From an uncultured delta proteobacterium (lineage in GTDB: Bacteria; Myxococcota_A; Polyangia; Polyangiales; Polyangiaceae), in the NCBI GenBank assembly GCA_963782055.1, contig CAWAIF010000003.1, forward strand, positions 6,592,001 to 6,656,000: a stretch of DNA of 64,000 bases. The letters are read 5' to 3'. This document shows positions 33,113-33,365 of the stretch, in pieces. The notes beneath the pieces were generated by a model, which did not search any database, was not told where the DNA came from, and was given only the letters and a program-made list of their open reading frames with translations. The position numbers and the translations under genes were made by a program. How positions within the stretch are numbered: position 1 is the stretch's first letter; each line of letters begins with the position of its first letter.

Positions 33113-33155
33113 CAAAAGCGACGTAGCGCGGGGAGCAAGCTCCACGCGCTACGCT
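33113..33155 (-). terminator. Intrinsic terminator
   Basis: CGTAGCGCG..GGAGC/GCTCC..CGCGCTACG hairpin followed by TCGCTTTT on minus strand. Confidence 0.7.
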
Positions 33156-33338
33156 GAAGTCCCGGCGCCCCTCGACGACGCCGACGTTAGTCCGCGGGGG
33201 CCTCCCGCTCAGGGTAAGGAAGAAGGCGAAGCGACAAGGAAAAGGGAAGGTCTAAGCCAAGCCAGGAAGCGAAGCACAAGCGAGCCGCCAGAAGGGAGCC
33301 ACGGCGGCTTCTTCAGCGCCGCAGCCCTCGGCGCCGCC
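33113..33338 (-). ncRNA. Candidate sigma54-dependent small RNA with CUU-repeat tract
   Basis: Bracketed by a -24/-12 promoter and a terminator; internal hairpins; 12 CUU in about 66 nt; no long ORF with genomic codon bias. Confidence 0.55.
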
Positions 33339-33348
33339 CTACCCCAAG

Positions 33349-33365
33349 AGCAGTCTGCGTGCCAA
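33349..33365 (-). promoter_or_regulatory. Sigma54 (-24/-12) promoter
   Basis: TTGGCACGCAGACTGCT on minus strand: TGGCACG and exact GG-N10-GC spacing. Confidence 0.7.

Follow-up and report, generated by a model that had tools for sequence, protein, structure and literature searches.

Csr and Rsm RNAs act as sponges that sequester CsrA or RsmE (excerpts of PMC4005645). In Pseudomonas, CrcZ has a sigma54 promoter, and NrsZ depends on RpoN and carries a repeated motif whose copy number varies between species (excerpts of PMC4253122). Pxr, a myxobacterial RNA of a host without Hfq, has a sigma54 promoter and an enhancer (excerpts of PMC5568312, PMC5684412 and PMC10217877). MXnc1, known from TRIC-seq in Myxococcus xanthus, is a hub RNA in a host that also lacks Hfq (excerpts of 10.1101/2025.09.11.675593). 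Here we analyze a 64,000-nucleotide stretch of DNA (the window) from an uncultured member of the Polyangiaceae (contig CAWAIF010000003.1, positions 6,592,001 to 6,656,000). Its minus strand carries a gene for a non-coding RNA of about 225 nt with a repeated CUU word. The source is a 7.58-Mb genome (G000) that is 97% complete, and window coordinates are used throughout.

On the minus strand, a two-part enhancer (33508-33466) is followed by a sigma54 promoter (33365-33349), the RNA and its terminator. A preliminary description of this DNA had proposed the promoter, two 5' hairpins, 12 CTT triplets (11 of them after G or C) and a terminator with a U tail. All of these are present where it placed them, the triplets at 33280-33216 and the end of the U tail near 33113. 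It did not contain the upstream enhancer, which was found in the present analysis.

Conservation in the Polyangiaceae

A BLAST search with the element in 41 genomes, proposed earlier as a check, returned short matches at chance level, none better than E 0.002 beyond its own locus; two of them lay at the syntenic upstream site. Since BLAST finds no homologue, conservation was followed by synteny. The PDZ protein encoded next to the RNA could be placed in 124 of the 151 genomes of the family, and the DNA upstream of its gene was examined in 101 genomes (21 including our own, and 80 more). The expected conservation of promoter and CUU tract is borne out: 90 of the 101 orthologous PDZ-thioredoxin loci contain one sigma54 site with 6 or more CTT per 80 nt downstream of it. 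Only 97 such sites exist among all 677,624 bases scanned. The family genomes are kin, so that these counts are not independent events and the z values given below are overstated. In seven of the 11 non-matching loci the unit is there but its -24 box is a variant; the other four are short stretches, one of these with a unit on another contig.

The unit points towards the PDZ gene at 65 of the 90 loci and away from it at 25. Where no PDZ match was found, it lies beside tRNA-Arg in five of ten genomes tested (G075, G045, G098, G096 and G106). Further units are located elsewhere in G133 and in G049 (short, no enhancer). In G104 (3.4 Mb) and G048 (1.8 Mb), the RNA was found neither beside tRNA-Arg nor by three patterns, which does not prove its absence. 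The variation in orientation and locus indicates that promoter, tract and terminator travel together as one gene. The RNA is a single-copy, independently promoted and terminated non-coding gene.

These loci also bear on two alternatives raised earlier, an attenuator or leader of the PDZ-thioredoxin gene and the mRNA of a 16-codon GTG peptide. The 65 units facing the PDZ gene would fit a cis element. Among the 71 of 90 members with a terminator by the rule used (19 were dropped), on which all RNA statistics are based, 21 have an ATG open reading frame (ORF) of at least 10 codons. However, inversion at 25 loci and presence where the PDZ gene was not found exclude an attenuator, and other genes intervene in many loci. 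No ORF is conserved: 23 of the 71 RNAs have no ATG, the ORFs have no common sequence, and the 16-codon ORF is missing from all four genus relatives examined. A cis-acting or peptide-coding role is largely refuted and very improbable. A small gene resembling cytochrome P460, a name that we assume, separates the RNA from the PDZ gene in 19 of the 101 loci (L165, L057, L058 and others).

RNA in soil metatranscriptomes

A discrete RNA from this locus is present in soil. Eight soil metatranscriptome runs from two studies contained 15-20% of the sequence words. Four runs were compared with 31500-35000 (3.5 kb); each gave one contig, 33129-33332 or 33135-33330, 100% identical, with nothing else covered, although the runs resemble two data sets filed twice, the depth is about 3 and the contigs are strandless. 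DNA carry-over is formally possible in metatranscriptome contigs, but the empty flanks speak against it; they do not mean that the flanking genes are silent. The RNA is apparently abundant, being the sole assembly from these 3.5 kb in soil RNA. The contig ends agree with those predicted earlier (33338 and the terminator). They end at the terminator and leave the PDZ gene uncovered, which again argues against a leader of that gene. The preliminary description had suggested an independent non-coding RNA, about 225 nt long and of sigma54 type. This is upheld in three ways: promoter, tract and terminator are conserved across the family, the unit is inverted at some loci with respect to the PDZ gene, and the RNA contigs are confined to 33129-33332.

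Promoter and enhancer

The genome contains 62 sites with the sigma54 consensus, and only the one at the RNA locus has a downstream CTT tract (13 CTT per 80 nt; next best 5). The tract had been called atypical in composition. At 12 CTT per 70 nt it indeed reaches the maximum density of the 7.58-Mb genome, tied with four other places that resemble the opposite strand of Lys/Glu codon runs.

The enhancer upstream of the promoter is a two-part motif, GMAA-N3-TTKCR and, after 17 nt, YGAC-N6-GYC. In 72 high-scoring sites, the G, A and C of site 2 are kept in 71, 71 and 70; for the G and C further on, the counts are 69 and 71. Our own enhancer, itself in the training set, scores 40.0 bits versus 17.6 for the next genomic site, and by this measure it is unique in the genome. 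Distances between enhancer and promoter cluster at about 103, 114, 125, 136, 147, 158 and 169 bp. They show a helical period of 11.2 bp, with R 0.81 for 87 loci (three poor calls below 90 bp left out) and R 0.69 over 34 distinct distances. Sigma54 activators loop to the polymerase on one helix face, and the 11.2-bp phasing is as expected of such looping.

In a blind test, metagenome contigs were searched with only the enhancer and promoter as query. This gave 54 matches, 52 with enough downstream DNA. A CTT tract lies downstream in 42 of the 52 and an AAG tract in none; a tract lies upstream in three. At the level of sequence, these data place the RNA under the control of sigma54, acting through a two-site enhancer of its own.

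An FHA-domain protein (G000:C3:1041520-1042839) was considered as the activator of the RNA. It was rejected because, although it fitted four small genomes, searches found it in no more than 90 genomes of the 150 in the family, and not in carriers including G081, G119, G042, G017 and G008. The activator comparison recovered 9 of 11 activators of G049 and 33 of 42 of our own genome.

Related sites were seen in other settings. Metagenome contigs L385, L390, L393, L401 and L432 carry a comparable two-part enhancer, set at the same phased distance, that drives a small conserved ORF of 50 residues (acidic, Arg-Gln). In this group, which belongs to another lineage, the ORF sits between DegP-like and M23 peptidase genes; it has no homologue in G000. 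About 30 near-identical sigma54-like sites in G000 lie directly before scattered paralogous MarR-like small genes, for example at C3:6491239 and C3:6580921.

Repeated words and fold of the RNA

The RNAs are 158-381 nt long (median 245), with 10-27 CTT and about 15 copies of the word. Sequence and length vary freely, and the kept feature is the word (G)CUU(A/C/G). Compared across members, the architecture is kept while the sequence is not. Relative to dinucleotide shuffles, GCTT is enriched 2.1x (422 versus 204 expected) and present in all 71 RNAs, CTTA 3.1x (182 versus 58) and GCTTA 4.7x (84 versus 18); TTTT and CTCT are depleted, 0.39x each. This pattern indicates a repeated word and not a mere pyrimidine run. 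A word spacing of 5 is enriched (z 7.0) and a spacing of 3 depleted (z -6.9), which excludes a codon repeat. TRAP binding also has a period of 5, which the spacing of the CUU words recalls. The commonest 8-mer is found in 30 of the 71 RNAs, indicating no shared contiguous seed. CTCCCTTC occurs in 6 of the 71 and CCCTTC in 23. In all 71, CTT is predicted to be less paired than the remainder (0.69 versus 0.40).

The GGGCUG loop word is found in 44 of the 90 members. In the 5' hairpin, one flanking pair covaries (CG 17, UA 10 and UG 2 of 35; reached in 0 of 2000 shuffles), and the other four do so weakly or not at all. The second hairpin has two-sided changes in four of six predicted pairs among eight close sequences. 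The whole RNA folds at shuffle level (z 0.66), and its 5' 135 nt fold worse (z +2.08). The terminator hairpin folds better than shuffles (z -2.75, reached by 2 of 200). Its GCGCG/CGCGC core and U tail are kept in 20 aligned members, with no two-sided change in five consensus pairs. A simple terminator scanner returned 0 sites at the locus because the U run sits a few bases from the stem. The hairpin sequences claimed earlier are present and the terminator is supported by folding, but the third hairpin is not (z 0.41).

Features of the locus

Table 1. Features of the RNA unit and its neighbours, in window coordinates.
Feature	Coordinates	Strand	Remarks
Enhancer site 1	33496..33508	-	Near-palindrome, consensus GMAA-N3-TTKCR; presumed sigma54-activator binding site; motif from family upstream set
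Enhancer site 2	33466..33480	-	YGAC-N6-GYC, 17 nt behind site 1
sigma54 -24/-12 promoter	33349..33365	-	TTGGCACGCAGACTGCT starting at 33365; +1 predicted near 33338
Non-coding RNA, about 225 nt	33113..33339	-	RNA contigs 33129-33332 and 33135-33330; strand inferred from promoter and terminator
5' hairpin, GGGCUG loop	33316..33334	-	GCGCCG/CGGCGC at 33334/33321
Second hairpin, CUCCCUUC loop, subclade feature	33283..33309	-	AGCCGCC/GGCGGCT at 33309/33289; CTCCCTTC at 33298
Single-stranded tract, 12 CUU words, functional core	33216..33280	-	11 of 12 with G or C before
Terminator hairpin and UUUUGU tail	33112..33155	-	z -2.75
PDZ and TlpA/redoxin protein gene	32186..33049	-	Pfam PDZ_2, Redoxin; neighbour outside the unit
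tRNA-Arg(ACG)	33683..33759	+	Usual neighbour of the unit in the family
TadA-like deaminase gene	~33781-34242		After tRNA-Arg(ACG)

Among the matches listed for the PDZ protein, the best named relatives are Polyangiaceae (at least 4 true orthologues among at least 78 loci). A minus-strand rRNA operon occupies 36800-42600 of the window; its spacer contains tRNA-Ile and tRNA-Ala, and the 16S tail ends in CCUCCUUUCU. Elsewhere in the genome, two small ORFs (near G000:C3 6819125 and 6829228) begin with repeated four-base units and are possibly phase-variable.

As predicted, a scan of the element against Rfam gave no family match at E up to 5. Over 20 loci (19 units or candidate units and one analogue), matches at gathering score were tRNAs only. 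In the literature searched, which included few subscription papers and not the M. xanthus non-coding RNA survey cited in the excerpts of PMC8538405, an RNA of this kind is described neither from Sorangium or the Polyangiaceae nor from other organisms. The RNA family is real and apparently undescribed.

Relatives outside the family

Outside the family, a strict enhancer pattern with a sensitivity of 55 of 90 had no match in 277 genomes. A looser pattern gave matches in 23 of 171 class genomes. Its 25 loci comprise two family members, 11 apparent true units in four other families and 12 sites leading into ordinary genes with low scores. A family-restricted distribution was dropped after these matches. 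Seven of the 11 units belong to family f20, two to f91, one to f79 (poor enhancer score) and one to f80 (cut by the contig end). Their RNAs, shorter relatives from other orders, are about 140-205 nt long, more structured and not pyrimidine-rich, with 3-10 CTT; GCTTA is present in 9 of 10. In four f20 sequences, the loop of a hairpin contains CUUA. Judged by their enhancer, promoter, terminator and word, these units are likely homologous to those of the family.

In all six out-of-family loci examined, the unit is divergent from a gene of the Rne/Rng family (RNase G). This arrangement would fit an RNA that distracts one of the general RNA machines, such as RNase E/G, Rho or ribosomal protein S1, instead of a specific regulator, and Rho, S1 and RNase E prefer unstructured pyrimidine tracts. 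However, the word is too specific for such a role, with UUUU and CUCU depleted. The RNase G linkage is lost in Polyangiaceae, and the out-of-family RNAs are themselves structured and not rich in pyrimidines. We consider a general decoy improbable.

The promoter and CTT pattern was also applied to 301 genomes. It matched 90, mostly noise, and 48 inspected loci yielded one family unit (L296) and one analogue (L287). L287 (G344:C18 near 14552, minus strand; family f43 of another class) has a sigma54 site, a CUCU/CUCUUC tract of about 150 nt and a GC hairpin, with no enhancer. It is a possible analogue with a different word.

Mechanism

Many short, open and evenly spaced words with free flanks and in variable number are the signature of a sponge. 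By analogy with the Csr RNAs and CrcZ, we consider it somewhat probable that the RNA is a protein sponge with a new motif, titrating a regulator that binds single-stranded RNA. One enhancer-binding protein would switch the RNA on upon a signal. The RNA would then display 10-27 copies of (G)CUU(A/C/G), unpaired and with 5 nt as the preferred spacing. These words would draw a sequence-specific RNA-binding protein off its mRNA targets, as CsrB and RsmZ do with CsrA and CrcZ with Hfq/Crc. The RNA ends would be shielded, one by the 5' GGGCUG hairpin and the other by the terminator.

Several observations weigh against a sponge. CTTCCTT, which is able to pair with AAGGAGG, is enriched about 6.1x and occurs in 28 of the 71 RNAs. 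Within GCUU, the G and the C are frequently paired in the predictions (unpaired 0.17 and 0.31), and U-rich words are less paired through composition alone. In the leaders of 31 RRM and csp genes the word is not clearly enriched (1.58 versus 1.30 per 160 nt), and only 16 of 3893 leaders in the genome contain at least four copies.

CTTCCTT, together with TCCTT (2.1x) and TCCTTTC, which matches the 16S tail of the window (2.5x), points instead to multi-target antisense. The C/U tract would pair, with G-U wobble, with purine-rich ribosome-binding sites or Lys-codon-rich gene ends, free of Hfq and perhaps chaperoned by an RRM protein. It would then resemble FopS with RbpB, or MXnc1 and Pxr. The latter two base-pair close to Shine-Dalgarno (SD) sequences in M. 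xanthus, a host lacking Hfq (excerpts of 10.1101/2025.09.11.675593). In G000, with gene starts taken from a rough caller, the complements TAAG, AAGGA and AAAG are enriched upstream of start codons. Complements of 8 nt are in slight excess in the first 35 nt of genes (reached by 1 of 60 shuffles) and in the last 35 nt (5 of 60), but 5' leaders have no excess (33 of 60 and 23 of 60 shuffles reach the observed values). The anti-SD core CTCC/CTCCT/CCTCC is not enriched (CTCC 0.8x; CCTCC 1.24x, in 26 of 71), the spacing of 3 expected for Lys runs is avoided, and the complement of CUUA, called the most enriched word, is depleted in coding regions. Duplex predictions on 3969 start regions gave no convincing target; the top predictions are simply G-rich leaders, and a conserved seed is lacking. 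The longest complement to the rRNA operon is 10 nt. Antisense pairing therefore appears unlikely. The preliminary description had offered a protein sponge or an anti-SD RNA; the data favor the sponge over anti-SD pairing, although neither is demonstrated.

Candidate partners of a sponge were sought among RNA-binding proteins. CsrA (PF02599; the control matched in three genomes) and Hfq (PF17209) were not found in G000. Its candidates are three RRM proteins, two of them single-RRM and one tandem-RRM, and one CspA. RRM genes are present in all 11 genomes tested, nine of them RNA carriers; single-RRM genes are found in every carrier tested and also in the non-carrier G104. The tandem-RRM protein, which resembles PABP, Sxl, Hu and PUF60, is biased to the family (20 of 23 family genomes, 4 of 277 outside). 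It was rejected as the partner: G048 and G104 retain it, although the RNA was not found there, and it was not seen in any of five out-of-family carriers, a further point that disfavors the sponge. Small glycine-rich RRM proteins or CspA are our leading guesses for the partner. RbpB is a precedent for a bacterial RRM protein that binds single-stranded parts of small RNAs, as partner of base-pairing RNAs (excerpts of PMC11697453).

The tandem-RRM protein is glycine-rich and encoded at G000:C3:1057450-1058322 (L303), just before rpmG and mreBCD; it is kept even in the 1.8-Mb genome G048 and hardly extends beyond this family and order. By analogy with chloroplast PSRP2, it is possibly ribosome-associated. 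At L293 (G105:C7), a sigma54-driven leader carries several GCUU/CUUA words directly before the start codon and is a candidate target mRNA of the partner.

Comparison with known RNAs

Myxobacteria are without Hfq, and no CsrA was detected in G000; the RNA therefore bears on how their mRNAs are regulated globally. It is possible, though doubtful, that the sponge forms a third titration circuit beside Csr/Rsm and Crc/Hfq. In that case an ancient, class-wide sigma54 RNA would sequester eukaryote-like RRM proteins via CUU words of period 5, as a global post-transcriptional switch of myxobacteria lacking Hfq and CsrA, such as Polyangiaceae. This family holds Sorangium and other major natural-product producers. 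The RNA is nearly family-wide; its repeated word and its enhancer are both defined, and the number of word copies forms a natural series. It may serve as bait for the missing regulator, and the enhancer as bait for the activator among 42 candidates. The class is invisible to BLAST and Rfam and visible by promoter synteny.

Pxr is also a sigma54-driven myxobacterial RNA. However, it is 108 nt long, with three stem-loops, is conserved in sequence, lies downstream of pxrR and is confined to Cystobacterineae, whereas the polyangiacean RNA measures 158-381 nt and has other neighbours. The Pxr family RF01812 had no match at the locus or in G000, and matched 0 of 5 and 0 of 150 genomes in searches where no positive control matched. 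MXnc1 is likewise an intergenic myxobacterial RNA. Its neighbour MXAN_RS24205 is presumably distinct from the RNase G gene MXAN_5640, on our assumed conversion of the locus tags. Cuckoo/CcsR RNAs are C/U-rich and carry the loop motif CCUCCUCCC. One hairpin loop of the polyangiacean RNA contains CUCCCUUC, but CCUCCUCCC is not its repeated unit, and CCTCC is hardly above expectation.

NrsZ resembles the polyangiacean RNA in its RpoN dependence, here predicted from the promoter, and in a repeated motif of variable number. Unlike the short words in a mostly open tract described here, the repeats of NrsZ are entire stem-loops with ACAGGCAG, and its gene neighbours ntrC. CrcZ and CrcY have an upstream activator, unstructured repeated words and a terminator, like the polyangiacean RNA, whose sequence also contains a sigma54 promoter with an upstream enhancer. 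Here the words are pyrimidine and not A-rich (A content 12%; AAA 66 times in 71 RNAs), Hfq was not found, and the RNA is not beside an activator gene. In architecture, the polyangiacean RNA resembles CsrB, CsrC, RsmY and RsmZ, which also present multiple short unpaired words in variable number. Csr/Rsm RNAs have poor sequence conservation, variable length and a dedicated activator, as does the polyangiacean RNA. The word, however, is (G)CUU(V) and not GGA, which is not enriched (161 GGA versus 1133 CTT in the 71 RNAs), CsrA was not found in the host, and the RNA has no Rfam match. Most likely, the polyangiacean RNA works like CsrB and CrcZ, yet is a member of neither family.
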